Shown one piece after another: positions 29,938 through 61,024 of a DNA stretch of 64,000 nt. The DNA comes from a virus (taxonomy: Duplodnaviria; Caudoviricetes), in the IMG/VR virus record IMGVR_UViG_3300027891_000004, positions 32,001 to 96,000 of that record; one strand, 5' to 3'. A program made the position numbers and the translations under genes. Under the pieces are notes generated by a model. The model searched no databases and was not told the origin of the DNA. It saw only the letters and a program-made list of their open reading frames with translations. Numbering within the stretch: the first letter of the stretch is position 1; each line of letters begins with the position of its first letter.

Positions 29938-30450
29938 TTAGTGATAATCCGTAATTTCCTGTATTTCAATTTCTGTAACTTTCGACCAATCTAAATTACC
30001 GTTTGCATCTACGGGAATTGGATCATGCTTTGGCACAAAGATTAAACGCCACCCACCATGCAAAGCGCCAGCAAGTTGCCCTGCCCTATCGTCTTTTAAG
30101 CTGTGAAAATTACCTTTATTGTCACGAACTCCCCGCAATTCTTTACGCCCCTTCAATTCTTCAAGTGTTATAGCTCTTTCAAGTCTCTTTAATTGCTTTT
30201 CAAGCACAATATGATTTTTTGGATTTCCACCATCGCCTCCAAATTCGATATTTCCGGGCGTACATTCAGCTTCTACCTGAGGATTAGCGTAGGAAATGCC
30301 AACCATATTATCAACGGCGTCATCATTCCAAACCTTGCCGTCTGCCGACTGACATTCTTTTATGGTTTGGAACGACGCATTGCCGCCGATGCAACGACAA
30401 TCGCCAGAACCAGGCAGTTCGCTAAAACTGTTTACAACATTCATTTTCAT
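29938..30450 (-). CDS. type-B leader fused to a HigB/RelE-family toxin domain
   Basis: FHSLKDDRAGQLAGALHGGWRLIFVP...DW.KVTEIEIQEITDYH is a HigB signature; 48-aa extension VVNSFSEL...ASFQ...AVDN before MVGISYAN. Confidence 0.85.
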   Translation of the reverse strand: MKMNVVNSFSELPGSGDCRCIGGNASFQTIKECQSADGKVWNDDAVDNMVGISYANPQVEAECTPGNIEFGGDGGNPKNHIVLEKQLKRLERAITLEELKGRKELRGVRDNKGNFHSLKDDRAGQLAGALHGGWRLIFVPKHDPIPVDANGNLDWSKVTEIEIQEITDYH

Positions 30451-30462
30451 TCTCCTTTTTAT

Positions 30463-30490
30463 AGTATGCCGATTTCTTAAAATAAATCAA
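30463..30490 (-). promoter_or_regulatory. sigma70-like promoter TTGATT-N16-CATACT
   Basis: Same motif recurs at 59773-59800, 44792-44818, 45605-45632 and 56372-56400. Confidence 0.6.
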
Positions 30491-30514
30491 CAAGCATGGA
30501 TTCAAAAAGGCAAA

Positions 30515-30534
30515 AGCCCGCCACGTGGCGGGCT
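30515..30534 (-). terminator. palindromic intrinsic terminator after the tape measure gene
   Basis: AGCCCGCCACGTGGCGGGCT followed by TTT on the minus strand, 8 nt after the stop. Confidence 0.8.
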
Positions 30535-30542
30535 CGCCCATT

Positions 30543-33500
30543 TCAATAGTTCCTGTTTGCCCCGCCCGCCAGTCCGGCCGGGCGGTTGTAATTGTTGGTC
30601 ACGTACTCATTGCGACCCTGCGGCATCATCGCTCGCTGTTGCGTGGCCTGGATCAATTGCGGCATAGAGGTTGTCAGGAACGTCATCAAATTCGCGTGTT
30701 GCAATTGCATATTACGGTCCATTGTGATCGTTGCATCGGCGGCGGGGTCCGTAACATGCCCGAACGCGGCGGCCTGTATCCGTTCCCACGTACCCTCCAT
30801 CGAATCCTTACCGCCCACGTCCTCACTAATCAGACCCCGGTACGTACCGCTTGCGGCCATACGGTCGGAGATCGCCTCGGCTATTTGTTTACTATTGTCC
30901 ATTTCCGCCCTTTGGTTGGCGTATTTCTCTTGGATTTGCGCCATTTCCGATTCGGTTACGCCGCGTTCTTTGGCCCGTTCGGTTTCGCGTTTCTCCTGCA
31001 CCGTTAAATCACGCGATTGCCGTTCGTATTGGAGTTCCCGGTTGCGTTTTTGAATCGCCTTCATCCAATCGGCACCGGTTTGCGCACCGGCCATATCGAC
31101 GGCGAATTGTGTATTGATATTCCCCTCGCGCCGTTGGGATTCGCCGCGTGTTTTTATCATATCGGCTTGGAAACTATCGGCTCTTTTCCTACGTTCGGCA
31201 TCAAGTTTTACCCTTTCTTCTTCAAGTTTTTGGGCGCGTTCCTGTTCTTTTTTTGACGCCGTATTTCTGGCTTCCCGTCTGTCGTCGGCTTCCATTTTTT
31301 GTCTTTTCTGTTTCGCGTCCAGATCGTCCTGCGCCATTTGATGTTGGCCTTTTTTGGTAGCTTGGTCCATAGCCAATTTACCCAATTGTGCTGTCCCTTC
31401 CTTGTAGCTTGCAGCCAACGTTTCCAGACTTGCCTTTTGATCGCCGTTATTGATGCCTAGTTGCTTCAATATATCTGCCAATATGTTGTTGCCCTGCATA
31501 GCTTGCGCAAGCTGCGCATCGCCCGCCGCGGCGGCGGCCTTCATAGCATCTGATATATCTGCGTTGGCTTCTTTGAGACCCTCTTTCATTGCTTCTTTCG
31601 CTTTGTCGTCTGCTACCTGTTCATCTGTCAGGCCGGGCGTTGTTTGAGAAGGTGGACCGCCACTTGTTACTGCGCCTGTCCCTGAAATCTCGCCCGGTTT
31701 CGCTTTCTCAATCTGCTCCTTAAAATAGTCGCGTATTTCAATAGCCGTTTTTTCATCGCCATCTTTTGAAAGCGCATTATTTATCATACCTTGTACTTTT
31801 TTGCGTTCCTCAGGACTTAAATCTGCCGTCTTAAGATAGGAAGCCATTCCTGTTGAAAGTTCTCTTGTCGCGGATGCCGCACTATCTTTCTCAGCAAACA
31901 AATTCCAACCGCTTCTTTCTTTATTGCTCTTATTTGCTTCTACAACGGTAGAACTATCCGCATACAATTTACGGAGTTCCTGCAAGTTTTTCAGTTGCTC
32001 AGGCGTTAATTCAGGCGTTTGTTCCTGTTGCCCCTGTTGTCCTTGCGTCTGCTGTTGCGGCGGCTGTTGTGGGACATTCGGGGTATTCGCCCATTGCTGC
32101 ACGTCCTCGCGGGCGGCCAATTCGCGCAGTTTTTCAACACGTTTATCGCCCGTCAAACCTCTGACTGCATCGTTAAATTCACTTATTTTCCCCTCTTTTT
32201 GGAAAAATGCTTGAAGGCTGCTCTCCAACTTTTGGCTACCTGCAGTAAACCCTTCCATTATTTCCCTTGCCAACGCTCTCTTGTCGTCGTCCGTAAGCTC
32301 TGCCTTGACCTTTTTCTCTGCCTCTGCTTCGGACATACCCTTGCCCATAAGGTCTTTTTTCTGCTGCTCCAAACTAGCGATAAACGCCTGATCGCGGCCA
32401 CCTCCTAAAGACGCCGATTGTGCTAGTGTTTTTTTCATTTGTTCCCAGCCCATATTTTCTATGGGTTTTGCCCACGTCGTAGGATCGGTCAGCGCGGCCG
32501 CTGCTTTCGCCTGTGCTTCTTCCATCTGCTTCCGGTATTCGACTTCTTTCTTGATATACTCCAACTGCATAGCGAACCGGATCGCCATCATTTGAAGTTC
32601 CAATTGGTGTTTCATCTCAACCATTTTCATTTCAAATTGGGCTTGATCTTCGTTCTGCTGTTGTTGGAGCGCGTGTTTTTCCTTCATCGCGGCATCGTCT
32701 TCCTGATTCTTTTCGGCGGTGTCCAACGTGGCCTGTCTCTCTTCCATTTTCGTGACAATCCGGTCGAATTTTTCGGCGATTTCAATAAGCTGCAAATCAC
32801 GCTGAATGTCGAACGGGGATTTGCCGTATGTGTCCATCGTTACGATTTGACGGTCCAGAACGCGGTCGAGCGTCCGTTGGAACAAATCGCGTTCTCGTTT
32901 CCGGTTCGCCAACACGGTCTCGAATGTTCGTATTTCGTTGTTCTTTCGCAACTTGTTGTACTCCACGGCCATATCGACCATTTTCTGGTGCAAATCAAGC
33001 GCGATCTTTTGTTCCAGATCGAACCGGGCCTTTTGGTACTCGGCTTCATGCTCAACGCGGGCCTCGAACATTGATTTTTCCGCTTCCAACCGTACCTCCA
33101 TTTCTCTTTTGGCATCTTCTCCCTGTAGAGCGGCGATACGCATCTGCGAGGCTTCGTACGCGACGAATTCCCGCTTCTGTCTACCGGCCCACTGCGAACC
33201 TCCGGACATATCTTTCCAATCGCCTGCCGACGCCGCGGCTTGCTTGGCCAAATCATGCAATTTATTACGGAATTCTTTCTCTGTGTTAATTTCGAGTTCG
33301 ATGCGCGCCTTTTTGGCGGCCTGCAGCTCTTTTTCTTTATCCGCCAATTCATTGGTCATTCTTATTTCTTCATTTTTCCATTTGTCAAATTCATCAAAAG
33401 CCTTCTTTTGATTTTCACGCGCCTTTTCAACTTGTGCTCGCACTTCCACGTACCGTTTGGCTATCCGTTCCTCGGTTTCCACGTACACGTTTCCTTTTTC

Positions 33501-38197: not shown

Positions 38198-38203
38198 CGC
38201 CAA

Positions 38204-38231: not shown

Positions 38232-38250
38232 CAATTTCTGCTCGTTTCTC

Positions 38251-38925
38251 TTAGCCGTCGAGCGAGGCAATAAAATCTTTAATTTCGTTGACCTTCGCCT
38301 CAAACGCATCCCGGTACTTTGGGTCTACTTTCACGTCCGGGCGGTTCATGTGCATCCGCCCTATAGTGATCCATTGTTGTATCCCTTCGATATTTTGCTT
38401 AAACGACGCATCCATTTTATTCAAAAAGCGTTCTTTTTCCGCCAACTTATCTCCCCATTTGGAAGGATCGGATTTCGCAAAATCGCCCAAAAACTTTTTT
38501 GAAGTAGCGTCAATATCTTTCCACTTCAAATCCGAACGCAAATCTCGCAAATCCCTTGTCATCACATCTAAAACAGAGCCAGGAGTACGCGGCCCAGTCA
38601 ACGTGCTCATATCCGTATACCCGCTGCTCGGATCGTATACGTACTTGATTTCGTTGAACGCGGCCTGGCTCGACCCGGCCGGACGCGATTGCCCGCCGGT
38701 GTTACGCTCGAAAACGCTAAGATCGGCCACCCCGTCGCTACTGTAGTATTCCCTATCGCTCATATCATCCTCATCTTCTTTAACTTCATAAGTGTCGGCT
38801 ACGAGTGCCCTATAGTTCTTCCAATCTTCCCACGTAACGCCGTTCCACAAGGCAACAAGGAAAAAGTAGCCCAGAATCAAAACTGGCGTTAGCACAACAC
38901 CGATTATAACAAAAGGTATAAACAT
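38251..38925 (-). CDS. membrane-anchored protein with an internal type-A leader (alternative start 38763)
   Basis: N-terminal TM helix; VADLSVFERN...QAAFN from about aa 66; GAGGA upstream of ATG 38763. Confidence 0.7.
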   Translation of the reverse strand: MFIPFVIIGVVLTPVLILGYFFLVALWNGVTWEDWKNYRALVADTYEVKEDEDDMSDREYYSSDGVADLSVFERNTGGQSRPAGSSQAAFNEIKYVYDPSSGYTDMSTLTGPRTPGSVLDVMTRDLRDLRSDLKWKDIDATSKKFLGDFAKSDPSKWGDKLAEKERFLNKMDASFKQNIEGIQQWITIGRMHMNRPDVKVDPKYRDAFEAKVNEIKDFIASLDG

Positions 38926-39692: not shown

Positions 39693-40058
39693 TTAATCTT
39701 TTCCTAAACTGTCATTATCATCCTGGATAATATCGGTTTTAATGTTGTGGATTGCCGTTCTGCCTTCCGGAGCGCATCGAGAACTGAACGCCTGTACAAT
39801 TTCTAAGCGAATGTAGCGGTATGGGCACATCTGTTCCGCTTCAAGTTCCGGCGGCATCAAAACATTTTCAACGTTGAATGCGGCTATGCGGTCGTTGTGT
39901 TTCACAAAATTGCGTATCGTTACCTGCAATTCGTCGATAACCAATTTGTCGCCCCGGACAAACATTTCAACAAACTCATCTATTGACCGGACATCCCAAA
40001 TCGTACAACCGGGTAGCGTCCAACCTCTGGGCGGCCTTATTGTTATTTTAATTTTCAT
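39693..40058 (-). CDS. leaderless partner of 40055..40474
   Basis: ATGA overlap with the leader gene. Confidence 0.65.
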   Translation of the reverse strand: MKIKITIRPPRGWTLPGCTIWDVRSIDEFVEMFVRGDKLVIDELQVTIRNFVKHNDRIAAFNVENVLMPPELEAEQMCPYRYIRLEIVQAFSSRCAPEGRTAIHNIKTDIIQDDNDSLGKD

Positions 40059-40474
40059 TGTGATCCGCCATATTTTTCTTTAAAATAATCATCGTATTGG
40101 ACAATATCTGATATTGTATAAACGCCCAATTCCATTAGCTCTTTTTTTCTATCTGCGTAATCATCTTTCCGTTTATCAATCATCGACATCATCGCCTTAT
40201 TAAGGTGCTGTTGAATTCTATCGCCGTCAGTTGGCATCCTTAAACGCCGCGATTCTTCGATAACTTCCTCTTCTAGCCCTAGAATAATATCTTTTTGTTT
40301 TTCCGCATCCCATTCGTTCCACGGTTGTGGTTTGCCTATAAACTCAGCATTATCAACCGTTGCGCCTTCGGTCGTGTTTTCCTCTTGAAACGCTGACATA
40401 TTGCCGCTACCACCGGCTTTGCCCGTTTCAAGCAATTCATTGAAACTACTCGCTACTCTCATTTTATGTTTCAT
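40055..40474 (-). CDS. type-B leader plus unknown helical cargo
   Basis: MRVASSFNELLETGKAGGSGNMSAFQ...TVDN. Confidence 0.8.
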   Translation of the reverse strand: MKHKMRVASSFNELLETGKAGGSGNMSAFQEENTTEGATVDNAEFIGKPQPWNEWDAEKQKDIILGLEEEVIEESRRLRMPTDGDRIQQHLNKAMMSMIDKRKDDYADRKKELMELGVYTISDIVQYDDYFKEKYGGSQ

Positions 40475-40533: not shown

Positions 40534-40851
40534 CTAAGGGTTATCGGGGCGACGGTTCCAAATATGGCTCACGTACTGCAACACGTTTTTAATCGAAACT
40601 TCATTATCTGCAGCACAATCGTGGTATGTCCGTAACAAACAAGGAAAACAAGCAACGTGGAAGTAATGGGGGTCTGCGTTAGACGGCGTATAGCTGTAAA
40701 CAACATACACATCTGTTTTTCCGCATTTAGGACATGGCAGCAATTCGCTCTCTGTCTGTCGGATTAAACGCTTTAATTCATAAGCATCCTCCAAATCGTC
40801 CAAAGAGTATCGCAATTTTTCAGGAATATTTTGTTTTATTGTCGTTTTCAT
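40534..40851 (-). CDS. Lar-family (restriction alleviation-like) Zn-finger protein
   Basis: LLPCPKCG...V.C..C...WNRR. Confidence 0.8.
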   Translation of the reverse strand: MKTTIKQNIPEKLRYSLDDLEDAYELKRLIRQTESELLPCPKCGKTDVYVVYSYTPSNADPHYFHVACFPCLLRTYHDCAADNEVSIKNVLQYVSHIWNRRPDNP

Positions 40852-40869
40852 GTTTTTCTAACAACAGTG

Positions 40870-41199
40870 CTATTCAAACCAGCCGTGCCCGTATTTCCAT
40901 TTGCCAAAACCATGCGTATTCTTAAATTGATCCGCCTGTTCTCTTGTAATTGACCGATAGCCTTCAAGAAAAAACGGATTGCCTTCAGAACCCGGTTCTG
41001 TTACAACAATGTCATACCCATCTCTATCCTGCGCAATATACAGCGAAATATCATAAAAAGATACGGGAGATAAATCCTCAACGGGCTTTTCTCCGGTCGG
41101 CATATTCTCCACTGAAACAGATTGAAACGCTGACATATTGCAGCTGCCACCGGCATTGCCCGTTTCAAGCAATTCATTGAAACTACCCACTACTCGCAT
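40870..41199 (-). CDS. type-B leader plus cargo X
   Basis: MRVVGSFNELLETGNAGGSCNMSAFQSVSVEN-MPT...; cargo similar to those of 50525 and 47795. Confidence 0.8.
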   Translation of the reverse strand: MRVVGSFNELLETGNAGGSCNMSAFQSVSVENMPTGEKPVEDLSPVSFYDISLYIAQDRDGYDIVVTEPGSEGNPFFLEGYRSITREQADQFKNTHGFGKWKYGHGWFE

Positions 41200-48199: not shown

Positions 48200-48237
48200 A
48201 GCAGTATGCAAAAAAAGAAAAAATACTGATCAAAATT

Positions 48238-50107: not shown

Positions 50108-50506
50108 CTACTTACCTGTCCTTTTATTCCATGCGCTGCAGACGCGCCTTAACGCTTCTACAAAATCGTCTTCGGTATCTTCGGCATTCCACACTCTTGT
50201 TTGGATTCGGCAATCTTCAATATCTGAGGGCGGATCAGTAGCAGCATTTCGGCAACACACAACATACAACTCATGCGGGCATTCCTTCATGGGGATTTCG
50301 CCGTTTGGTTGCAGCTGAGTTGGGAACATATTACCGGGGCGGTACATGTAATGTACATGCGGACGATCATTTCCGCAATGCGCACAGGGCAGCAAGGTGG
50401 CATCAGCCTCGTTAATGAGGGTAGCTATTTCGGACTCGTTTTCAAGCTCGTACAAAAAACAACGAGTACGGCCATCACAATTGCCTGTTTTTAGTTTTGT
50501 ATTCAT
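50108..50506 (-). CDS. Lar-family Zn-finger protein
   Basis: LLPCAHCG...PH.LY..C...C...WNKR; GAGG RBS. Confidence 0.8.
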   Translation of the reverse strand: MNTKLKTGNCDGRTRCFLYELENESEIATLINEADATLLPCAHCGNDRPHVHYMYRPGNMFPTQLQPNGEIPMKECPHELYVVCCRNAATDPPSDIEDCRIQTRVWNAEDTEDDFVEALRRVCSAWNKRTGK

Positions 50507-50524
50507 TATTGCACCTCATAAAAG

Positions 50525-50887
50525 CTAAAATAAGTACCCCCACTTATCAAACTTATGCGTATTTTTGAACGCGATTGCTTCTTGAGCCGTTATATTATCC
50601 ATATCTTCGATATACGCTGTTTGTTTGCCGCCATCGGGGTCTGAAACGGCAATCCCACACCTGTCCGTTCCTTGAACAGGGTGTAGCGAAAAAACGTAAT
50701 GTCTGTCTGGACGCAATTCTGATAAAGAGATTAAGCCGCTCGGAAAGTTTTCTACGGAAACGTCTTGGAACGCGGCGTTTACGCTCACGGCGCGCAGGCT
50801 ACGGTCATCAAACGTAAACATAGCGGGTATGCCAAATGCCGCGTTCTGCTGCGTCTGCAACTGCGAAAAAAGAGGGATAGAATCCAT
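50525..50887 (-). CDS. type-C leader plus cargo X
   Basis: Leader followed by SVEN-FPSG...YVFSL...FKNTHKFDKW. Confidence 0.8.
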   Translation of the reverse strand: MDSIPLFSQLQTQQNAAFGIPAMFTFDDRSLRAVSVNAAFQDVSVENFPSGLISLSELRPDRHYVFSLHPVQGTDRCGIAVSDPDGGKQTAYIEDMDNITAQEAIAFKNTHKFDKWGYLF

Positions 50888-51260: not shown

Positions 51261-51605
51261 CTATCTTTGCATAAGAGCTTGTTTGATACTTGCCACATCC
51301 TGCTCCAAACGATCAAATCGCGTATTTGTGTCGTTATGCAACCGTTCTATTTTTGCGTCTACGTTTGCGAAACCGTTCTTTGTAGCAATTTCCAAATTAT
51401 CAATTCGGGCTTCAAGGCCATCGACCCGCTTGCTCAAATTCTGGCCCCATTGTGGCATAGGAAGGTTACCCTGGACGGACGCGGGGGAACCGACGGGGTT
51501 CACGCCCGGCGCGTTCTCAATCGTATTGAACGCGCCCAAATTCGACAATCCGACGTTTCCGGTTCCAAGCGATTCAAACATCCCAATATCTGCGAGTTTT
51601 TCCAT
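51261..51605 (-). CDS. type-A leader plus coiled-coil cargo
   Basis: MEKLADIGMFESLG...LGAFNTIEN; paralog of 49294. Confidence 0.8.
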   Translation of the reverse strand: MEKLADIGMFESLGTGNVGLSNLGAFNTIENAPGVNPVGSPASVQGNLPMPQWGQNLSKRVDGLEARIDNLEIATKNGFANVDAKIERLHNDTNTRFDRLEQDVASIKQALMQR

Positions 51606-51634: not shown

Positions 51635-52027
51635 CTATTGTGGCAATTCGTCGGGCGAGCCGCTACCAAAACTAGGCGAGCCGATAAGGGCTGGCGGGCC
51701 GCCTGAGGGGACGCTCGGCGTGTCTGAGGACTGGTCATTCCCCATACCGCCTTTTTGCAGGTCGGCCACGGCGGTCCGCGTACCACGCATACCAGCATCC
51801 AATCTATTATTCAACTCGTCAAGAACCCCCTCAAGTTTCGCTTGTTCGGCCTCGGCCTCGGCGTCCGCCCGGAGCCTGCGAAGCGAATCAATTTGCGTCA
51901 TCCAACTTTCGACGCTTGTTTTAATATCCTCAACAGTCGCGTTAAACACGGACATGGGCGACATCATGCGCCGGTTCGCGCTCGATTGGAGATTCTCAAA
52001 CATTGAAATATCGGCAAGTTTTTCCAT
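51635..52027 (-). CDS. type-A leader plus helical cargo
   Basis: MEKLADISMFENLQSSANRRMMSPMSVFN. Confidence 0.8.
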   Translation of the reverse strand: MEKLADISMFENLQSSANRRMMSPMSVFNATVEDIKTSVESWMTQIDSLRRLRADAEAEAEQAKLEGVLDELNNRLDAGMRGTRTAVADLQKGGMGNDQSSDTPSVPSGGPPALIGSPSFGSGSPDELPQ

Positions 52028-52265: not shown

Positions 52266-53060
52266 TCAATAGTCGCTGGCCGCCTCGAACCTGGCCTTTT
52301 CTTTTTCAAACTTAGCTTGATATTCTGCTAACTCTTGCCTCGCTTTTTCAATATATTCGGATTCAGAAACAGGGTCTTTTGAATAGGGAAACCGCCGCTC
52401 CAACTGCGCTAATTTCATCTCAGCCTGTTCAAACCGATCTTGGGCATCAAACATCCAACGTCGTAATGCTGGCGTGTTTTGGGAATCTTCCCATTTCTTT
52501 ATCTCGTCAAATTTTGGGATTGTGCGCTTTATATCGTCAAGCTGCTCTTTAATGACAGATGGGCGTTCGTCATAGTCACGTTCGTTTCCTTTTTCATCGT
52601 ATTTATCGGGGTTTCCCGTGGCAATCCTTTTCGCCCGCTCCAATTTGTCGCTTTCGCTTTCTGTTATTTGCCGCTGCGGTCGATCATCCTCTATCGGCAA
52701 CTTTTTTTGGACCGGCTGTTGGTCAATTTCGGCCAACAATTGCTGAGCTTTCGCCTGCGTGTCTTTGCCGACACGACGGCGGGTAGTTGCGACAGCATCA
52801 AAAAACTGACGAGCGACTTCTCTATCTCGTTCGTCCCAGCTACCAATTACGTCCGCCAACGTATCCGGCAACTCCAATTGGTTTTGGTCCAACGGACCAC
52901 TTTCATCTCTTAGCTCGTTTAATTTTTCTTGATAATATGCGGCACGGGCGCCGTTAAACGTATGTTTGTAGTTAAACACGCTCATCTGCGACATGCCCAT
53001 CGCGTTGTGTGCGCCGGATTGAAGGTTCTCAAACACAGAAAGGTCTGCTAGTTTTTGCAT
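52266..53060 (-). CDS. type-A leader plus charged helical cargo
   Basis: MQKLADLSVFENLQSGAHNAMGMSQMSVFN. Confidence 0.8.
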   Translation of the reverse strand: MQKLADLSVFENLQSGAHNAMGMSQMSVFNYKHTFNGARAAYYQEKLNELRDESGPLDQNQLELPDTLADVIGSWDERDREVARQFFDAVATTRRRVGKDTQAKAQQLLAEIDQQPVQKKLPIEDDRPQRQITESESDKLERAKRIATGNPDKYDEKGNERDYDERPSVIKEQLDDIKRTIPKFDEIKKWEDSQNTPALRRWMFDAQDRFEQAEMKLAQLERRFPYSKDPVSESEYIEKARQELAEYQAKFEKEKARFEAASDY

Positions 53061-53183: not shown

Positions 53184-54878
53184 TTAAGCCGCCATTTTGA
53201 ATTCATCGCCATCTTCTTCCAAACGCGACGCTTCGTCGGCGACGATAAGTTTCTTCAATTCCGGCGACATGTCCAACAAAAACGGGTACCGGGACGCCAG
53301 CGAATGGAGCTGCGCAAGGTAGACACGTTTCATATCGTCCGACGATTCGCCCAGGTACATCGCCATAGCGTTCCGCGTCTCGGCGAATACCTCGTTCATC
53401 GCCTTCGTAAACGCGGTATCTACGCTTTTTCCGCTTATCGCGTCCGCCCCGTCATCGGTAGTTGACTGGGCGATCCGCGTAGCATCGGGCAACGAATCGG
53501 CTTTGGAATCCCCGTACTTTTTAATATGGGACAACACGGCGGCCTGCGCCGCCTTCAATTCCACGTCAAGGTTTTCCAACTCACGCAAGTCGGCGGGATC
53601 GAGCGGTTTCTTAGCCTTGAGCAATTTTGCGTTCTTTTCCTCCAACTCCGCGATCCGTGTCCGAATGTCTACTGCAATAGCACGCAACCGCTTGCGCTCC
53701 GCATTCTTTTTTTCAACCTCTTCACTATCGAACGAACCCTTCGGTCGCCCGGTCGAGGCCGACTCCCACAACCCGTCCTCAGTCTGCCGGAACTTAAACC
53801 CGCCACGCGCGTCGTTCAGAAGGTTCAGAATCAACGCCTCATTGAATGAGGTAACGAGTACCTGTGCCGCGTTTCTTAATTTCTTAACCGTACTTACGAA
53901 CAGGTCTTCACCCTCTTCCAAATCGTCGGAGGCCACGATTTCGGGGTTATCCTGCATCTCCTCACGAGCGGGCACCTCCTCAAGAACAATTTCGGGCGTG
54001 TCCGGCATAGCTTCGGACAAACTTGCCACTTTCGCGGGACCTGTCGGCGGCTCAATTGTGATTTTGTAACCCTCGGCTGTTGTAAACGATTGCACGCCGG
54101 GCATGACCGGGCCCGCGCCCATTGATTCCAAAGGCGGCGCGACGGCTACTTTTATTTCTGTATGCGCCGTGCCGTGCGCATTCGCGTTTTTCGCATCGGT
54201 GTGTCCCTGTTCTTCTCTAAAAAGTCGTGTAGATTCCATAACCGGCGACCCCGCAAGATAATCATTGTTGATGTACGTAGTAATGATATTCAACGTTTCT
54301 CCCGCTTTCATTTCTTTTCGTTCGTTAATGAGCAACCCGGCCCCATCCGATAGGCTACAAGCGCCCTGTTTACGGGGCAGGATAGCGAGATGGTCGGCCC
54401 GGATGTTGATGATACGCCCGATATACGGTTCGCTATTCCATACGCCCTCATCCATGATGAGTTCGGAGAACAGACCGGTCGATATTTCCATCGGGAGCCG
54501 GTGTTTGATATGCTCAAGCAGGGTAGGGCACTTCTCCTCGGCCTTGCGTCTATCGATCCACGCTTCGGCCTTGAGCTTACCGTCCACAAAATGCGTATTC
54601 ATAATCATCCCGACCGCCTGCCGCTTGTAGACTTCGAGATCGGTCGCCGTATCGCCCCGGAACGGATGTTCGATTACGACGGGCTTGAAATTCCACATTT
54701 TGGGCGTTTTTGCCAACTCTTCGGTATCGTAATAAACGGGCCCCTGCGAGCCGGTATGGACCCCTTCGAGGATCATCGTCATCGGGGCGACGACGTATTC
54801 ACGGTCGTCAAGCGTTTCGTACCGAACCGTCGGGTCGATAGTTACGTTCCAAATGGTTTCTATTTTGTTGCGTGGCAT
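53184..54878 (-). CDS. DUF2213-type prohead maturation protease with long C-terminal region
   Basis: EGVH.G..G...Y..EEL...WN.KPVVIEHP, EISTG, DHLAILP...GACS..DG.GL. Confidence 0.9.
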   Translation of the reverse strand: MPRNKIETIWNVTIDPTVRYETLDDREYVVAPMTMILEGVHTGSQGPVYYDTEELAKTPKMWNFKPVVIEHPFRGDTATDLEVYKRQAVGMIMNTHFVDGKLKAEAWIDRRKAEEKCPTLLEHIKHRLPMEISTGLFSELIMDEGVWNSEPYIGRIINIRADHLAILPRKQGACSLSDGAGLLINERKEMKAGETLNIITTYINNDYLAGSPVMESTRLFREEQGHTDAKNANAHGTAHTEIKVAVAPPLESMGAGPVMPGVQSFTTAEGYKITIEPPTGPAKVASLSEAMPDTPEIVLEEVPAREEMQDNPEIVASDDLEEGEDLFVSTVKKLRNAAQVLVTSFNEALILNLLNDARGGFKFRQTEDGLWESASTGRPKGSFDSEEVEKKNAERKRLRAIAVDIRTRIAELEEKNAKLLKAKKPLDPADLRELENLDVELKAAQAAVLSHIKKYGDSKADSLPDATRIAQSTTDDGADAISGKSVDTAFTKAMNEVFAETRNAMAMYLGESSDDMKRVYLAQLHSLASRYPFLLDMSPELKKLIVADEASRLEEDGDEFKMAA

Positions 54879-54881
54879 AGT

Positions 54882-55232
54882 CTATTCAGTTTCTTGTTCG
54901 GGCACGCCGGGCGGGTAAAGCACATTGGTTTTAGCGATAAAATACGCGCGGACAAACGGGATAGCATCCAAAGTATGTATCGCAAACGACGAGCATATAC
55001 TTACCAACCCGCCGTATAGAAACAACGAGACAAGGCAGGGCCACCCGAAAGATGCCGTCGTTAGGCAAAAGTACAAAACGCCGACCCAGAACCCGACGCA
55101 CATCGGACATTGCGCCCCGTACCGCAAACCATCGGTCGGGAGCGAATCCCGCAGCGACTGAAGTATCGCCGAACGGGTAAGTATATTAACCAAACCGACA
55201 AGCGATATAAGTTCAAGTATTGCTATGTTCAT
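54882..55232 (-). CDS. DUF1360-like membrane protein
   Basis: ILTRS.I...LR...CPMCVGFWVG with TM segments. Confidence 0.7.
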   Translation of the reverse strand: MNIAILELISLVGLVNILTRSAILQSLRDSLPTDGLRYGAQCPMCVGFWVGVLYFCLTTASFGWPCLVSLFLYGGLVSICSSFAIHTLDAIPFVRAYFIAKTNVLYPPGVPEQETE

Positions 55233-55326
55233 TTTCGTTATAAAAGAAGGGGCGACGGCAGAACCGCCGCCCCAACCACCTTTTTCCCAAACCTTCTCTT
55301 GCGCGGGCAAGAACTCCCGCACCCGT

Positions 55327-55479
55327 AGTATACCAAATTTTCAGCTACCGTGTAAAAAACGCGCACTAGAGAATTTTTTTAGCACATTTACCAAAAATAT
55401 GCCAAAATACACAAGAACAACCATCGAAGTTTACCAAAAATGCGCCGCTTTTACACGGAACGAATTTTTATGATATAAT
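55327..55479. promoter_or_regulatory. divergent sigma70-like promoter pair
   Basis: Minus: TTTACA-N18-TATACT (55356-55327); plus: TTTACA-N18-TATAAT with extended TG (55450-55479). Confidence 0.7.
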
Positions 55480-55521
55480 GCGAAGGAATCGAATTTCTAC
55501 TTCTTTCACGGAGACAATAAA

Positions 55522-56055
55522 ATGTTTGCTGATATATCCGTTTTTGAGAATTTACAGCGGGGCGCACACAGCGCTATGGGTCTGTCACATATCGCCGTTT
55601 TCAACGGGTTCGTTGACGACGAGGCGAAGCGAAGAGCCGAATGGTGCGACGCCGAAATCGGTAAAATGAAACAAGAAATAACTGAAATACGCGATGAGCT
55701 GCTAAAAGCGCACAATAGCTACAATTTTCAACAGTATTTAATGGAACGTGGCGAAAGCGATAAATCACGAAAGGAAGAGTTGACAAGAAAAATAGAATAC
55801 CTTGACGAACGAAACAAGCAACTACAGGCGACGGACACAGATGGAAAATTTGTTACCGTATGTGCAGGAATTGAATCGTGCCTTGAGGACTTTCAAACAC
55901 AAATTAGCAGGGCAATAGACAACCCGGCGCGACCAATACCACCAAAAAGACCACCAGGACAATTACCAAAACGCCCTCCTCAAGGATTTCATAATTCTAC
56001 GCATGGCACGCCACTCTGTTTAGGGCTCTCCGTGTTTAATAAACCTTCCGAATAG
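55522..56055 (+). CDS. type-A leader plus helical cargo (inverted orientation)
   Basis: MFADISVFENLQRGAHSAMGLSHIAVFN; GGAG RBS; own promoter. Confidence 0.8.
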   Translation: MFADISVFENLQRGAHSAMGLSHIAVFNGFVDDEAKRRAEWCDAEIGKMKQEITEIRDELLKAHNSYNFQQYLMERGESDKSRKEELTRKIEYLDERNKQLQATDTDGKFVTVCAGIESCLEDFQTQISRAIDNPARPIPPKRPPGQLPKRPPQGFHNSTHGTPLCLGLSVFNKPSE

Positions 56056-56333
56056 GCTATACGGTGCATGGAAAAAAATACGCGGCACATACTATCCGAG
56101 TAGCAATTTAATAACTGCTCAGGGGAGAACCACGGATAAAATTCTGAAGCCTCGGCTCTAAAAATATAATTGATAAGCATATCTACCCTATACCCGTTAT
56201 GTATGTCAAGACGCACATTTTCACAATCCAAATCTTCCTGTAGCGCCTTTTTCCATTTGTACCGTTGCTCGGCCCTAGAACGTGGGCCAACCTTTGGAAT
56301 CTCAGCCAATACCTTATCCAGTTGTGAACCCAT
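55989..56333 (-). CDS. hypothetical protein, weakly DUF2442-like
   Basis: YPWFSPEQLLN...SEGLL; promoter motif at 56372-56400. Confidence 0.5.
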   Translation of the reverse strand: MGSQLDKVLAEIPKVGPRSRAEQRYKWKKALQEDLDCENVRLDIHNGYRVDMLINYIFRAEASEFYPWFSPEQLLNCYSDSMCRVFFSMHRIAYSEGLLNTESPKQSGVPCVEL

Positions 56334-56426
56334 GATACTGCCACGCCTTTCCTGCTTTGAACAATAGCCACAATATGCCAAAAACAAACGAAAAGATCAA
56401 GACGTTCTGAAAACGAAACAGCCGCG

Positions 56427-56446
56427 ATCCCGCCACGTGGCGGGAT
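56427..56446. repeat. palindrome ATCCCGCCACGTGGCGGGAT after the ibrB-like gene
   Basis: 20-bp perfect palindrome 15 nt downstream of the stop. Confidence 0.85.
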
Positions 56447-56461
56447 TCTCAACGGGAAGCA

Positions 56462-57016
56462 TCATTTATCTGCGACCGCCTGCGAGTAATCGCGGTCCGC
56501 GAACAGTTCGGCAAGACCCGAAATCTGCGACAACCGCAGTACCTCGTCCGGCTCCATGCCCAACTCACGGCCGATCTTTTTATCCGACCAGTTCCGACGC
56601 TTCAACTCAACCACAATATCGCTCATAGAAGACACCAGATGAACGCCGCGTGCGCGGTTATGCCGTATGGTCGCCGCGATACGATCACAGCGATCCGTGC
56701 GCGATTCGTTGATAACAACAACCGGTAGATGCGATAGTTTCAATTTGTCTTTGCCGATAATATGACGATGGAAACCGTCCACTACCTCAAACAAATCGCC
56801 ATTAAAAAACGTTACGATAGGCTGCGTGAAACCGTCCGCCCTGATCGATAGTTCAAGAAGTTTCAATTCGGGCGTAGCGACCTTATTGGGGTTGTAGTCG
56901 TTCGCAACGACCAACTCGGAGGGCACCCAATAGACCTTTGAAACGGGGTGCTCGCCTGCCCACGCGGGCGCGTGTTCATACGCCGAAAAATCGCGTGTAT
57001 CACCTACAGCCCCCAT
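56462..57016 (-). CDS. ibrB: IbrB/YbdM-like ParB N-terminal domain protein
   Basis: ANDYNPNKVA.PE..LL..SI..DGFTQPIV, VVDGFHR, ATIRHNRARG. Confidence 0.92.
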   Translation of the reverse strand: MGAVGDTRDFSAYEHAPAWAGEHPVSKVYWVPSELVVANDYNPNKVATPELKLLELSIRADGFTQPIVTFFNGDLFEVVDGFHRHIIGKDKLKLSHLPVVVINESRTDRCDRIAATIRHNRARGVHLVSSMSDIVVELKRRNWSDKKIGRELGMEPDEVLRLSQISGLAELFADRDYSQAVADK

Positions 57017-58191
57017 GCGGCCCTCCGCTTTTTCATTAAAATTTTGTACTTTTCGTAGGCGTCCGATTTCGTGGGCGAAAACGAAAGCCCCTTGCACCAA
57101 TAGTCGTTCCGCAACAGCGCCCGGCATATCCGACGCCAGCTGGGTTTACGATCCGAAACGGCATTTTCTTGTTTAAGCGGCAACTCATCGGGTATCTCCG
57201 CGTACCCGCGATCTCGCCACCATTTCAAAAACACAGCAATTTTGTTCTCGTAATGTTCGCAAAGATGGCCCGGCATGGAATCGAGCAGCAACCGTGCGAA
57301 CGCCTGCCACGTGATGCCCGCCGGTTTGGAAACCTTTATATTACCCAATATATTGCCCGACGTTTGCGAATAGAGCGAGCCCGCGTTCGCACCGTTTACG
57401 CGGGCAACGACGCGGGCCCATGTCTCCGGCTCGATCCGGTGGAACAGCCACAAACCTTTCCGCTGATCGTCGCCGTAAGGCTGACAAATCCGCATCTGAT
57501 GTATCGAAAGGCCCGCCTTGTGCATCAGATCGTACAACAGGTTATAGGGCAGCCGCGTCTTACCGAAAAAAGTCCATATATCTTCCGTTTTCCAATCGAA
57601 GATCGGGTACGCATTGTAGACGCCGCCCGGCATACGGGTCGTCCACGCCTTATTTGCGAACCGTTCTTTGCTCTCGCTCCAAATGGTACGCCGCCGGTTC
57701 AAACTCTCCGCCATCCGGATACCGACAAGGCAACACGTAGAAACGCCGCCACCGTACCATACGCCAAACTGCGGCACAAACTCTTCAAACTCCATCCCGT
57801 ACCGGAAAAAGGGGAAGTCGGCACCCGTCTTCACTGGATAATTGGGCAACGGGCGTACCCAATCTTTTTCACGACCCGGCTCCCAACAAATCCAACGCGG
57901 CTCAAACTGTGAAACGGCGTTACGCAAAAGGATAGGAAGCGTACACCAAAAAGGCTCGATATGCTCCGCGTACAAAGAAAACAGCTCGGAAACATGCGCA
58001 ATCGTATGCGCGTACTGGGCCTCCAAATCAATAAAGAACAAGCCGACTTTTCGACCGCGACGGGCCGCTTCTGCCAACGCAAGATGCGTCATCACCGACG
58101 AATCCTTCCCGCCCGAGAAAGATACGCAAACGCGGTCAAAACTATCGAAGCAAAACGCGATCCGCTCTTGGGCGGCTTCAAGCACATTCAT
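57004..58191 (-). CDS. ibrA: IbrA/YbdN-like PAPS-reductase-family protein (DUF3440)
   Basis: VSFSGGKDS PP-loop, IDLEAQY, GIR..ESLNR, YPIFDW..EDIW, QMRICQPYGDDQRKGL, PSWRRIC..LL.NDYWC. Confidence 0.95.
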   Translation of the reverse strand: MNVLEAAQERIAFCFDSFDRVCVSFSGGKDSSVMTHLALAEAARRGRKVGLFFIDLEAQYAHTIAHVSELFSLYAEHIEPFWCTLPILLRNAVSQFEPRWICWEPGREKDWVRPLPNYPVKTGADFPFFRYGMEFEEFVPQFGVWYGGGVSTCCLVGIRMAESLNRRRTIWSESKERFANKAWTTRMPGGVYNAYPIFDWKTEDIWTFFGKTRLPYNLLYDLMHKAGLSIHQMRICQPYGDDQRKGLWLFHRIEPETWARVVARVNGANAGSLYSQTSGNILGNIKVSKPAGITWQAFARLLLDSMPGHLCEHYENKIAVFLKWWRDRGYAEIPDELPLKQENAVSDRKPSWRRICRALLRNDYWCKGLSFSPTKSDAYEKYKILMKKRRAAWGL

Positions 58192-59729
58192 TTTACAATG
58201 CGGTACAACAGCGGGTCAAATTCGGTGTGTTTCTTCTGTATACGCAAAATATCGTCATCTTCAATCCAAACGGCGGCGTTGAGTTTCTTTTTTGCAGCCG
58301 TCATCCCGTTTTTATCATGCGGGTTCGATCCCGGCTTCACCTCGTACAACGTGCCAGTCCGCTCGTCAAGGAAATCGGGGAACCAACGGCGGCAAACGCC
58401 ATCATCGGTAACGTAGCCGATAAAAACATTGTCCGACCGGTAAAGCCGCTTCAAATGCGGGTTATCGTAATGGAAAAGCAACTCCCACGACGAATCGTAA
58501 TGAACGCCGTCGCGGACGTACTTCGCCGAACACAGCGGGCATTTCGTCTTACTATAGTATAGCTGGCTAGGCTTCACTGTCCAGATTTGGTTATGCCGCC
58601 CGCACAAAAAAGTAGTACGGCGCGTAAAACCGTCCCATTCTCCGTGCAACGAAATCTGCACATCATAGCCCGCCAGCCACTCCAAAAACGCCTCTTTCGG
58701 CCACGGGACCAACCCGGCGCATTTCGGGCATCCGTTGGGTTTGCAACCTTTTTTGCCGATAATAACGCTTCTTGCAGACGTTGTCCATTCGTATCCGTCT
58801 ATTCGGCACCTAAACCGTGCGGGCTTCCTTAAAAACTGAAAATCGCCGACCAGCTCTATATTGGGGTTCACGACGGCCAGTTTCGCCACAAACATCTCTT
58901 CCGTCCAACGCTCTTGACGCGAACAACGCGGACAGCATTTATCACGCGGTCTCGCGGCCACAAAATTACACGGCTTAGCCGACCATCGACCATCCGCCCC
59001 GTACCCGCACACGTTGCACCGAACGGCAATCCGAGTCGTTATATTGACAAACGGGGACATACGGACGATATGCGGGAAACGTTTCGCCATCAGCGCATCA
59101 AACGATTCCTGCGTGTACCGCTCCCGTTTGGAACAACGCGGGCACCCAAACCCATTCAAAACATCGGCAAGATGCGGATGCCATTCATAGCCACAGCCAT
59201 CTACCAAACAACGAAAATGCGTTTTTTCTTTTTTCTTTGTGAAACCGCCGACCATCTCCAACAAACGACCCTGTTCTCGGAGCTGCGCATTCACTTTCTC
59301 AGGCCCCCAATCGTCGCCGAGCATCGTAGCCACCCGCTTCTTTGAACGGCGGGCCGACTCCTCCTTGTCTTTCAACAGATGGGCTACGCCGTACCGCTTC
59401 AAATGGGTAGCTCGGGACGACTCGACAACCGCAGAAACGTCTTTTTCAACGCCCAACTCTAACAACCTCATCCCAACCGCACGACGACAACAGCCATAAA
59501 ATTCGGCAATCTCCTCTTGCGTCTTATTCTCCACCAAATAAAGACGACACAACTCCTCTTTCGTCGCCTGCGCTACCCGGGACGACTCTTTTTTTATGCC
59601 GTATTTCCTGCAATAATTATTGACTGTCTGCAAGCTACACCCAAGACGCCTCGCAACCTCTTCCTTCACAAGGTCCTGGACAATGTATAAATCAACCAGC
59701 TGCTCTTTAGAAAAACCTAACGATCTCAT
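58188..59729 (-). CDS. homing-endonuclease-like protein: tandem HTH, repeated Zn ribbons, C-terminal PD-(D/E)XK domain
   Basis: Two L..LY......E(I/V)A...GC HTH repeats; four C..(C)G..W...CP.C repeats; YDSSWE...WFPDF...YEVKP. Confidence 0.85.
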   Translation of the reverse strand: MRSLGFSKEQLVDLYIVQDLVKEEVARRLGCSLQTVNNYCRKYGIKKESSRVAQATKEELCRLYLVENKTQEEIAEFYGCCRRAVGMRLLELGVEKDVSAVVESSRATHLKRYGVAHLLKDKEESARRSKKRVATMLGDDWGPEKVNAQLREQGRLLEMVGGFTKKKEKTHFRCLVDGCGYEWHPHLADVLNGFGCPRCSKRERYTQESFDALMAKRFPHIVRMSPFVNITTRIAVRCNVCGYGADGRWSAKPCNFVAARPRDKCCPRCSRQERWTEEMFVAKLAVVNPNIELVGDFQFLRKPARFRCRIDGYEWTTSARSVIIGKKGCKPNGCPKCAGLVPWPKEAFLEWLAGYDVQISLHGEWDGFTRRTTFLCGRHNQIWTVKPSQLYYSKTKCPLCSAKYVRDGVHYDSSWELLFHYDNPHLKRLYRSDNVFIGYVTDDGVCRRWFPDFLDERTGTLYEVKPGSNPHDKNGMTAAKKKLNAAVWIEDDDILRIQKKHTEFDPLLYRIVK

Positions 59730-59772
59730 AACGATTACATCTCAAAGAAAAACAAAATCGGAGCGCAGACCA

Positions 59773-59800
59773 AGTATGCCAGAAAGACAAAAGAAATCAA
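59773..59800 (-). promoter_or_regulatory. promoter TTGATT-N16-CATACT for the endonuclease-ibrAB unit
   Basis: Recurrent motif, placed just after the capsid terminator. Confidence 0.6.
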
Positions 59801-59814
59801 GAAAGACAAAAGAA

Positions 59815-59841
59815 AGGGGGCTGACAATCCGTCAGCCCCCT
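59815..59841 (-). terminator. intrinsic terminator after the major capsid gene
   Basis: AGGGGGCTGAC-GGATT-GTCAGCCCCCT then TTCTTTT. Confidence 0.9.
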
Positions 59842-59872
59842 CAAACTCAGCATAACGTTTCGAGGATTATGC

Positions 59873-61024
59873 CTAAATAACGGGCTTCGGCGCAGACAAT
59901 CTCGCGTGCAAGATACCTGCCCTTCCGTAAAAGTCCGATTTAAGACGAGGCAACAAAATGCAGATTACCTTGAAGTGGATTTCAAATCCTCCTTCTGTTT
60001 GCCACTGGACGGTGGTGATATCCATACCGGTAACGGCTTGGATGGTATTCTGGTCGAGTTCGATCATGACGAAAGTTCCGTAGGGTAGGAACTCGGAGCA
60101 ATTGATCGACTTGATTTCTTTGATCTTTTCCAACCGTTCTCGGAGCGTAATAGTGCTCGTTTGCCCGGCGGTATGATCGTTATAATCATCGTCGAGGATT
60201 TGGTCAAAATCGGGGCTATGGTAGATAGCGAACGGTCCGTAGTGCCGGATGTCGTGCAGGTTCCGTCGAGCGTCGAGGATTTGCCTGTAGAGGATAGCTG
60301 GCGACCAATCGGGATCGCGTGATCCATCGACCCTTGCCCAGTTGGTAAAGACTTTTGTAAGTCTTTGCGGGTAGTTGCACACGCCGTAGACGTTTCCGCC
60401 TCCGAACTGGAAATCGGGTTCGACGCCGAGCGCGAGTCTTTCGACTTTTTCGGCGACCATCCGGGACGCCATACCTGCGGTGGTTACGTCGATGGGCATA
60501 TTGGAGTTCCGGGAGACGGCGATTTGCCGTGCGCTGAAGCTGAAATCCTTGTGGATGATCGGCAACGGCATCTGATCCATGTCGTACATGGGCCGGTCCG
60601 CGTCCCCTTTGCGAAGCCCGTCCATACTGACGGTTGCGCCGGTGATATTGGATTGCCGTTCGTACTGCCACACGGTTTTCCCTAGCGCGTTTGGCAGGTT
60701 GACGTTAAGCCCGGCGGCTCGTAGGTCGTTGAAGAACCGGAGTCGTGGCATTGCTGCGGCGACGACGGTTTCGTCGATCATAACCCAGTCATCCTTTCGG
60801 AGCGTAGCTGCGTTTGTGGTCTGCACGTTTTTGAGAACGGGCTTCCCGTCTTTCCAACCGATTTGTTGCGAGATGAGCGAGGTATGCCCGTCATCGTGCA
60901 GGAACGGTCGGATGCAGCGGGGGTCGAAGTTGTAGGTAAGCAACCGGGTGGCAACGTCGCCGGACCCGCCGATTAGACTTGCGCCGTTCGTAATAGAAAC
61001 GGGCATCGCGTTCAGATTTTGCAT
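59873..61024 (-). CDS. major capsid protein (encapsulin/Linocin-M18-like HK97 fold)
   Basis: NAATLRKDDW..ID..V, A.VSMDG, PLPIIHKDF....RQ...SR, VAEKVE.L, YG..NYP.R; AAGGA RBS; strong terminator. Confidence 0.92.
   Translation of the reverse strand: MQNLNAMPVSITNGASLIGGSGDVATRLLTYNFDPRCIRPFLHDDGHTSLISQQIGWKDGKPVLKNVQTTNAATLRKDDWVMIDETVVAAAMPRLRFFNDLRAAGLNVNLPNALGKTVWQYERQSNITGATVSMDGLRKGDADRPMYDMDQMPLPIIHKDFSFSARQIAVSRNSNMPIDVTTAGMASRMVAEKVERLALGVEPDFQFGGGNVYGVCNYPQRLTKVFTNWARVDGSRDPDWSPAILYRQILDARRNLHDIRHYGPFAIYHSPDFDQILDDDYNDHTAGQTSTITLRERLEKIKEIKSINCSEFLPYGTFVMIELDQNTIQAVTGMDITTVQWQTEGGFEIHFKVICILLPRLKSDFYGRAGILHARLSAPKPVI

Follow-up and report, generated by a model that had tools for sequence, protein, structure and literature searches.

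In phage T4, internal proteins are loaded into the prohead by means of a short N-terminal tag, which the prohead protease gp21 afterwards takes off, cutting after L/I-x-E. In phages P2 and Mu, an N-terminal protease and a C-terminal scaffold occupy one polypeptide (gpO and gpI, respectively) that cuts itself between the two parts, and the capsid protein is trimmed; we know of no cargo leader family for either protein. Nor, to our knowledge, is there a leader-tagged cargo set in Pseudomonas phage Pa193, whose gp24 belongs to the Pfam family PF09979. In the published account, Pa193 gp24 was treated as a scaffolding protein only, with no protease activity or cleavage rule given; a helix-turn-helix in its C-terminal part (residues 286-326) stays under the five-fold vertices of the capsid, and the authors suspect cleavage (PMC11456595). 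The present analysis concerns a 64,000-nucleotide stretch from the genome of an uncultured tailed phage, hereafter the window, which comprises bases 32001-96000 of the IMG/VR virus record IMGVR_UViG_3300027891_000004 (167,820 bp, estimated to be 94% complete). It encodes a PF09979 protein in which a putative head protease is fused to a scaffold, an encapsulin-like major capsid protein, and a series of small genes with an N-terminal leader in common. A preliminary description of the window had observed that the leaders end in a hydrophobic residue, any residue and asparagine (Asn), that similar tripeptides occur in the capsid protein and the protease, and had proposed that the protease cuts after Asn in all three.

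Comparison with relatives of each gene leads us to consider it probable, if only just, that one protease cuts the capsid protein, itself and the cargo after Asn, and that packaged cargo, including toxin-like proteins, is freed thereby. The head would be built with the protease-scaffold fusion, the N-terminal domain of which would be a serine protease of the gp21/assemblin type; this would cut after Asn where P3 is aliphatic (Val, Leu or Ile; consensus [small]-[V/L/I]-x-N), a small or acidic residue being preferred after the bond. Three kinds of substrate are proposed. The first would be the protease itself, where a cut after L-L-I-N185 would part the enzyme from the scaffold, as in P2 gpO. The second would be the capsid protein, cut at N66 and/or N71 to leave a core that is co-linear with an encapsulin. 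The third would be approximately 30 small proteins, whose leaders of 22-48 residues end in the site; the first block of the leader would carry the protein into the prohead, and a cut after the last leader Asn would free a cargo whose N-terminus is the native one or differs from it by no more than a few residues, as for the complete foreign genes of the HigB-like and DUF4160 types. In this scheme we infer the packaging, the scissile bond and the identity of the cutting enzyme.

Boundary asparagines in the protease and capsid protein

The protease-scaffold fusion (53184..54878, 564 amino acids) has a protease domain at approximately residues 15-185 and a scaffold part at residues 186-564; its gene, the capsid gene and the genes of the leader array are all on the minus strand. 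Residues 48-169 matched PF09979 (DUF2213, now Pa193_gp24) with 32.2 bits against a cut-off of 22, or 34.8 bits in the genome search, and the PHROG label was head maturation protease. An AlphaFold model of residues 1-203 had a mean predicted local distance difference test score (pLDDT) of 87.6. It was matched by T4 gp21 (5jbl_B; Z 11.8, root mean square deviation 3.5, 138 residues aligned) and by herpesvirus assemblins (Z 7-8.4; Foldseek probability 1.00); as modelled, the protease domain has the fold of gp21 and the assemblins. H71, S133 and H163 were invariant in an alignment of 32 sequences and are likely to be the catalytic residues, as predicted from their order and spacing, which resemble the assemblin His-Ser-His triad. 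The genome contained only one PF09979 gene and no match to either S78 (PF04586) or the Prp protease, so that no rival enzyme for the cutting was apparent; S77 (PF03420) had no genome match either, though an S77 control likewise matched nowhere.

Relatives of the protease comprised 59 distinct sequences from IMG/VR and 61 from an independent, large protein collection, 120 in total. Among the former, Asn was found at +4/+5, counted from the final block of invariant residues (G-A-C-S..D-G-[AC]-G), in 53 of 59 and within +2 to +6 in 58; among the latter it was found at +4/+5 in 60 of 61. When pooled, 113 of 120 proteases had the boundary Asn at +4/+5 and 119 had it within +2 to +7, the lone exception being Gln. 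In the window this residue is Asn185 of G-L-L-I-N185 (codon 54324..54326, minus strand), after which the self-cut is proposed. Similarity among the relatives stopped at the boundary Asn, and the length and sequence downstream differed. In many distant relatives a second motif, x-x-N/E-(L/M)-S (a slash directly after N marks the boundary, here and below), opened the next conserved block, with a variable linker between the two Asn. The Asn of G-L-L-I-N directly after the catalytic domain was pointed out in the preliminary description. In two distant relatives the protease gene (L068, 2671..8157; L069, 1167..4178) carried a large insertion, possibly an intein, immediately behind the G-A-C that is invariant in the last block, and the proteins were lengthened to 1,000-1,800 residues.

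The major capsid protein (59873..61024, minus strand, 383 amino acids) was assigned an encapsulin-like HK97 fold with an N-terminal extension of 71 residues. Its Pfam matches were DUF6260 (83.5 bits, from residue 71) and Linocin_M18 (24.8 bits against a cut-off of 24.3). Encapsulins were matched to the capsid model with Z scores of 22-24, residue 7 of M. xanthus EncA being aligned to model residue 70, and the profile of the capsid family was aligned to 6nj8 from encapsulin residue 8 (E 3.6e-14). The pLDDT of the model fell below 50 only at residues 1-22 and 68-72. Since the encapsulin start is aligned at capsid residues ~70-72 and confidence is low at 68-72, residues 1-71 form an extension with no counterpart in encapsulins, attached through a flexible linker in which the conserved Asn lies. 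One candidate cut is Q-T-T-N71/A-A-T-L-R-K (Asn71 codon 60812..60814, minus strand). Relatives were taken from 80 IMG/VR loci at 35-47% identity; in all 61 distinct sequences, Asn occurred 3-5 residues before an invariant anchor, L-R-K-[DE]-[DE]-W, and this spacing varied as expected for a linear motif. The boundary had Ala at P1' in 55 relatives, V/L/I at P3 in 45 and Pro at P4 in 39. A second candidate, V-L-K-N66/V, fits the hydrophobic-x-Asn pattern better than Q-T-T-N71; in two close relatives (on contigs L092 and L093) N66 and N71 are both retained, with variation in the four intervening residues. The suggestion that the conserved core starts at Q-T-T-N71 was borne out for DUF6260 and for distant relatives, which alone start at residue 71, and not for closer relatives, where similarity extends from residue ~11-22.

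A distant relative, Shigella phage Sf11, provides experimental data. It has the same gene order; gp41 matched the protease profile (E 5e-28) and reads G-I-F-A-T-N/G after the last invariant block, and the capsid protein gp39 (PDB 9ocb) matched the capsid profile. Mass spectrometry of Sf11 virions covers residues 40-356 of the 356 residues of gp39, the electron cryomicroscopy model covers residues 46-355, and the authors' inference is that the N-terminus has been removed (PMC12724387). Asn-Ala bonds occur in gp39 at 33/34, 36/37 and 45/46, Asn45 being homologous to the Asn kept throughout the family. The Sf11 data therefore lend experimental support to N-terminal processing in this group of capsid proteins, and the boundary of the missing part has Asn-Ala bonds on both sides.

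An Asn-Ala bond in a capsid protein raises the matter of self-cleavage by Asn cyclisation, which occurs in the coat proteins of nodaviruses, tetraviruses and picornaviruses; Asn/Ala is the self-cleaving bond of the nodaviruses. Asparagine lyases are a recognised class (PMC3207474). That the capsid bond is of this kind, the leader and protease motifs being unrelated to it, seems extremely improbable. The likeness to asparagine peptide lyases consists of the shared Asn/Ala dipeptide only, and a dedicated gp21-type protease is encoded, fused to the scaffold. Moreover, the motif is found also at the end of the protease and in disordered leaders on approximately 30 unrelated proteins, where the folded environment needed for catalysis is unlikely to exist.

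Leaders and their cargo

The array of small genes with a common N-terminal leader is situated directly downstream of the protease gene. A hidden Markov model (HMM) built from obvious members identified ~27 leader-bearing open reading frames genome-wide; in the window, 16 were counted. Two short, related motifs, [S/G]-x-F-[E/N/Q] and [S/T]-[V/I]-x-N, recur in the leaders, which have two to four copies, and their first block ends in a near-invariant F-E (K-L-A-D-I-S-x-F-E-x-L). When a profile of ten window leaders was searched against 1.84 billion representatives (E up to 1e-3), it matched 323 metagenomic protein clusters, no more than 50% identical to each other, and the leader was at the exact N-terminus in nearly all. 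A second profile, anchored on the terminal block, was taken from 146 of these metagenomic leaders. This showed 3-4.5 bits at P5 (M/L), P4 (S/A/G), P3 (V in 131 leaders), P2 (F) and P1 (Asn in 144, Gln in 2), 0.73 bits past the Asn at P1' (A, D, S, G) and ~0.2 bits beyond; hence, conservation in a profile anchored on the junction ends at the Asn of M/L-S-V-F-N. In approximately one third of these leaders a second [VILMAC]-x-N followed within the next 12 residues, often as x-[VI]-[ED]-N 4-8 residues on; the combination of F-N and x-[VI]-[ED]-N in the leader of 51261..51605 was found in metagenomic leaders also, and some leaders were tandem (P0002, P0116). In IMG/VR, the alignment-based search gave no confirmed leader matches, and a degenerate DNA pattern matched nothing. 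Two known kinds of leader were considered and rejected. Double-glycine leaders of bacteriocins or of RiPPs (peptides made by ribosomes and modified after translation) do not apply, as a G-G end and a C39 transporter are both absent, and each cargo is a folded domain (60-230 residues). Host cleavage of the Prp type, directed at an L27-like N-terminal motif in Firmicutes phages, was set aside because the phage has no Prp gene and the motif differs.

All leader junctions quoted in the preliminary description, like those of the capsid protein and protease, were present at the genes in question. Type-A leaders ended in S-V-F-N30/Y (30 amino acids, 52971..53060) in the first gene after the protease (52266..53060) and in S-V-F-N29/A (29 amino acids, 51941..52027) in gene 51635..52027, the latter matching the leader profile; a further type-A leader ended in V-F-A-D-N33/F (62452..62550, gene 62119..62550). 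In two leaders, G-A-F-N27 was followed by a second junction, which was T-I-E-N31/A in one (51513..51605, gene 51261..51605) and P-V-Q-N31/A in the other (49549..49641, gene 49294..49641). Type-B leaders ended in S-C-F-N26/S (49214..49291, gene 48773..49291, with its Met start at 49291), in A-F-Q26 then S-V-E-N32/M (41104..41199, gene 40870..41199), and in A-F-Q then T-V-D-N42/A (40349..40474, gene 40055..40474). One type-C leader had A-F-Q41 then S-V-E-N47/F (50747..50887, gene 50525..50887), while the other, A-A-F-Q41/G, had no Asn at all (49947..50069, gene 49647..50069) and is an exception to the rule. Other leaders ended in S-C-F-N27/S (48688..48768, gene 48238..48768), in S-M-F-N27/S with a later junction, I-V-D-S/M-S-P (48119..48199, gene 47795..48199), and, in a short example, in A-S-F-N22/A (46417..46482, gene 46120..46482). 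Two others preceded recognizable toxin-type domains: a leader of 46 amino acids with four motif copies ended in V-V-G-N46/M-S-P (47249..47386, DUF4160 gene 46949..47386), and a leader of 48 amino acids ended in A-V-D-N48/M-V-G (30307..30450, HigB-like gene 29938..30450). A degenerate leader with a weak HMM match read S-S-F-Q27 then D-V-Y-N31/A (63174..63266, gene 62994..63266). All of these are on the minus strand. On the plus strand, 55522..56055 had an N-terminal leader ending …I-A-V-F-N/G and a second copy, L-S-V-F-N/K-P-S-E, four residues from the C-terminus. Exceptions to the junctions as first described were the Ser at the second junction of 47795..48211, the A-F-Q of 49647..50069 and the V-F-A-D-N of 62119..62550.

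For the HigB-like cargo (29938..30450), PHROG 3066 (toxin of a toxin-antitoxin system) was matched with an E-value of 1.2e-4 and PDB 6f8s with 0.23; there was no Pfam match at E up to 1, PF05015 included. In the Atlas structure (template modelling score 0.82), residues 49/50-170 were aligned over the whole of HigB-like proteins of 109-120 amino acids. The assignment is made with moderate confidence. Since the alignment starts at residue 49/50 and extends over whole proteins, the Met after Asn48 matches a native start. A HigB-like paralog elsewhere in the genome had an unrelated leader and a similar junction, S-V-D-N/M-V-D, both paralogs reading V-D-N/M-V. The second toxin-type cargo (46949..47386) matched DUF4160 (PF13711) at residues 60-133 with 41.6 bits against a cut-off of 23; its paralogs and the copy on contig L093 matched also. 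Leaderless proteins resembling DUF4160 have 79-105 residues, compared with 99 for the cargo from Met47, and five DUF4160 cargoes, from this genome and from metagenomes, all read N/M. On L093, a leader resembling type B ended in F-V-G-N/M-T-P-V-V and the DUF4160 Pfam domain started 9 residues later, the spacing usual between the start codon of a DUF4160 gene and the Pfam domain. A word-based homolog search with the DUF4160 cargo returned the query itself only. Finally, one cargo occurred behind both a type-B (40870..41199) and a type-C (50525..50887) leader, with the S-V-E-N unit kept in both. For the HigB-like and DUF4160 families, which align over the whole of leaderless proteins, there is thus good support for whole genes having been captured behind a leader; the proposal that the Met after Asn is where these folds begin agrees with the native starts of leaderless relatives.

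The cargo found behind two leader types belongs to a two-gene cassette present in three copies on the minus strand (40534..41199, 47419..48211 and 50108..50887). Its first gene is leader-tagged and the cargo ends in F-K-N-T-H-x-F-x-K-W, which is diverged in the 47795 copy; a small zinc-ribbon gene is directly next, and two of the three zinc-ribbon genes gave sub-threshold matches to Pfam Lar_restr_allev (E 1.8e-5 and 3.3e-3). In the middle of the leader-cargo array there is an RtcB RNA ligase gene (41256..42365, minus strand; Pfam E 5e-66), adjoining HigB-like and other toxin-type cargo genes. Two further minus-strand genes contained internal motifs resembling leaders. The product of 38251..38925 had an N-terminal, hydrophobic, membrane-like segment followed by A-D-L-S-V-F-E … S-Q-A-A-F-N/E at residues ~66-92, and 39693..40058 encoded a leaderless protein of 121 residues with I-A-A-F-N/V-E-N/V at residues 58-65, which resembles tandem proposed sites. 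An upstream box, A-A-C-T-T-T-T-A-C-G-[AG]-A-A-G-T-G-A-T-A-A, was common to several leader genes (at 51605 and 49641), and a similar sequence was found at 61024. No clear Shine-Dalgarno sequence preceded the start codons of head and cargo genes (minus strand, 38925-61024); a Shine-Dalgarno test at internal Met codons was for this reason uninformative and was abandoned.

Leader genes co-occur with this clade of proteases and capsid proteins. A protease 77% identical to that in the window (P0158) shares its 101-kb contig with leader proteins P0025 and P0043, and an 8.6-kb contig encodes both leader protein P0152 and another protease, 79% identical (P0155). The capsid gene, the protease gene and leader genes were all present on contigs L092 (138.8 kb) and L093 (83 kb), with at least 8 and at least 12 leader genes, respectively, in 22 kb. 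Among other uncultured phages, a 22-kb Logan contig (L086) had at least 13 leader genes in 15 kb, beside DNA methylase genes, and a 101-kb ENA contig (L091) had at least 12 in 18 kb, beside DNA methylase and Cas5d-like genes. At the 80 IMG/VR loci with more distant capsid relatives (35-47% identity), the leader HMM identified no leader genes within 10 kb. The protease-scaffold gene was just upstream of the capsid gene in 70 of these 80 loci, unlike the situation in this phage, where the capsid gene is 5 kb upstream of the protease gene and ParB-like, PAPS-reductase-like and other genes are found between (54882..61024).

Motif frequency, terminal copies and other explanations

Several observations count against cleavage after Asn by the one protease. 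The loose motif [VILM]-x-N occurred 1.14 times per 100 residues of a proxy proteome; there was no enrichment in the scaffold part (5 copies seen, 3.4 expected), and six copies were found inside the folded protease domain. Because the motif is common, neither the pattern nor Asn alone can define a site, and its value rests on position. Leader genes within one genome are paralogs, meaning that their agreement is partly inherited, and at some leader ends Asn is replaced by Gln (49647..50069) or Ser (47795..48211). Q-T-T-N71 of the capsid protein has Thr at P3 rather than an aliphatic residue. In the protease model, the tail past residue 180 was of low confidence, and Asn185 was not placed in the active site. 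Given that coverage of Sf11 gp39 begins at residue 40, the bond 45/46, which is homologous to N71/A72, is not fully cut in that phage, and Asn66, which is upstream, is consequently no worse a candidate than Asn71. Lastly, copies of a stricter motif at the C-terminus, described below, would suit a docking tag and cannot be cleavage sites. Comparison supports the original proposal as regards the common boundary, with an aliphatic P3 and Asn at P1, the gp21/assemblin fold of the enzyme, the position of the capsid site in a low-confidence linker where co-linearity with encapsulins begins, and the starts of the toxin-type cargoes; on the Sf11 peptides, the real capsid cut may be at an upstream Asn.

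Position, nevertheless, was consistent. Asn was present at three kinds of boundary, in 119 of 120 proteases, 61 of 61 capsid proteins and 144 of 146 leaders, while neighbouring residues varied freely. That this agreement reflects shared ancestry and a common tripeptide, the leaders being paralogs and the Asn of the capsid protein and protease being structural and unlinked to them, was judged very unlikely. This explanation gains from the frequency of the loose motif and from the scaffold sequence V-T-S-F-N346-E-A-L, which had earlier been likened to the S-F-N-E-L-L of type-B leaders. It was not conserved in 23 close relatives, many of which have an Asn near that column; going by that alignment the likeness is probably accidental, and the claim has been dropped. 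It gains also from pairwise alignments of paralogs, which were rejected as a means of locating the leader end, being too noisy when charged coiled-coil cargoes extend them (Asn/Asn was the commonest end, in 18 of 138 pairs). Against it, Asn is kept while flanks and spacing vary, within families that are only 35-47% identical, and the junction survives leader swapping. Furthermore, a distant capsid clade converges on a full leader end, reading S-P-V-F-N/A-T-S-L-R-K where the leader of 51635..52027 ends in S-V-F-N/A-T; capsid relative L002, in turn, reads P-V-Q-N/A, as does the leader end of 49294..49641.

A strict form of the motif, [MLVIF]-[SAG]-[VAMCI]-F-[NQ], had 25 copies in ~51,000 residues. 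Sixteen of these were N-terminal leaders, four were at the exact C-terminus (all A-F-Q), two were within 14 residues of the C-terminus and three were internal. The four proteins in question end in M-S-A-F-Q or A-M-A-A-F-Q, then stop, and three also start with a type-A leader; no reading frame continues past the C-terminal copies. They are encoded at 25900..26451(+), 98203..98754(-), 126904..127479(+) and 161874..162077(-) of the genome, corresponding to -6100..-5549, 66203..66754, 94904..95479 and 129874..130077 in window numbering. A metagenomic relative, P0046, also ends in a motif of the leader type.

The use of one motif at either end of proteins is what would be expected of a docking signal, through which cargo is targeted to the scaffold, the protease or the interior of the shell, the leader staying on the cargo and Asn being kept for binding. 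The presence of two to four motif copies in leaders, which can be tandem, agrees with this, as does the structural closeness of the shell to encapsulins (Z 24), whose cargo is loaded by short terminal peptides. We regard docking alone as a rather doubtful explanation, however, because it does not account for the Asn at the end of the protease domain (119/120) or in the flexible linker before the capsid core (61/61), nor for the removal of the capsid N-terminus in Sf11. Conservation also stops sharply at the Asn, with a weak preference for small residues after it, which is typical of reading on the non-prime side by a protease. Docking and cleavage could coincide if the substrate groove of the protease were the cargo receptor, such that the tag M/L-S-V-F-N docks as a substrate, tagged proteins are co-assembled, and loading and release are one recognition event. 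This is an unlikely elaboration. It would be speculative to add that A-F-Q-COOH at the C-terminus acts as an uncleavable product mimic, either staying bound or delaying the protease, and equally so that F-E, invariant in the first block of the leader, is a non-cleavable pseudo-site.

The same F-E bears on a further alternative, in which the protease processes all three classes and the scissile bond is elsewhere, whether after the leader x-F-E, at the upstream Asn only, or one residue off, Asn being a recognition residue. Proteases of the gp21 fold in T4 and phiKZ are established to cut after Glu, a nearly invariant F-E closes the first block of the leader, and the cut in the Sf11 capsid protein was placed upstream of the homologous Asn. 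Yet Glu replaced Asn at the protease and capsid boundaries in 0 of 181 sequences, and the residue before Asn was the most variable across the three classes (F, T, A, R, Q), unlike what is seen at P1. We consider a displaced bond improbable on these grounds, and cleavage after Asn itself is retained as the preferred reading.

Relationship to known systems

The arrangement most like that in the window is found in T4, where IPI-III and Alt are processed by gp21 (MEROPS S77). In both cases a short N-terminal tag occurs on unrelated proteins encoded near the head genes, the protease has the same fold, and the proposed site, like that of gp21, combines an aliphatic P3 and any P2 with a fixed P1. The phage differs from T4 in that P1 would be Asn, or rarely Gln, and not Glu, so that its candidate sites do not conform to L/I-x-E; its leader is 22-48 residues long with two to four motif copies, compared with a tag of ~10 residues in T4. 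It differs also in the fusion of a PF09979 protease to the scaffold, in the encapsulin-like capsid protein and in having some C-terminal tags. P2 gpO and Mu gpI have the same protease-scaffold architecture, although the sequence families are different.

Encapsulins share with this phage the structure of the shell and the use of a short terminal cargo peptide, C-terminal as in some of the tags here. Their peptides have another sequence and are not removed, whereas most of the tags described here are N-terminal and the system includes a protease. In the MuF polymorphic toxins of temperate phages, toxin domains are carried on a head-associated module and travel in the capsid. There, however, the toxin is on the C-terminus of a large MuF head protein, rather than being the product of a whole, small toxin-type gene behind a short leader.

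In phiKZ, 201phi2-1 and SPN3US, gp175/gp245 cut after S/A/G-x-E. These are likewise large phages in which N-terminal propeptides are removed from paralogous head or ejection proteins by one prohead protease (PMC5694885, PMC7411985, PMC10052503); they are unlike the present case in having Glu at P1, other capsid and protease families, and no long, conserved leader on ~30 genes. No published cleavage rule was found for PF09979, and a search under DUF2213, XkdF, DUF6260, KpV2811, MaInes and 9NA gave nothing relevant.

The PF09979 family is widespread in cultured phages of Pseudomonas, Klebsiella, Shigella and Brevundimonas, and, if cleavage after Asn is correct, the mature ends of their capsid, scaffold and cargo proteins would be predictable from sequence. 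Some 30 proteins per genome in this clade, including HigB-like and DUF4160 toxin-type proteins and many of unknown function, would then probably be packaged in the capsid and delivered together with the DNA. The leader would be a short, portable tag that loads foreign proteins into an encapsulin-like phage head and leaves them a near-native N-terminus on release, thereby linking the loading of internal proteins in phages to that of cargo in encapsulins. Set beside the described systems, the scheme of targeting followed by proteolysis is that of T4 and phiKZ; to the leader family, the present comparison adds an Asn boundary that runs through the protease and capsid families, together with the fold, the co-occurrence with leader genes and the experimental anchor provided by Sf11.

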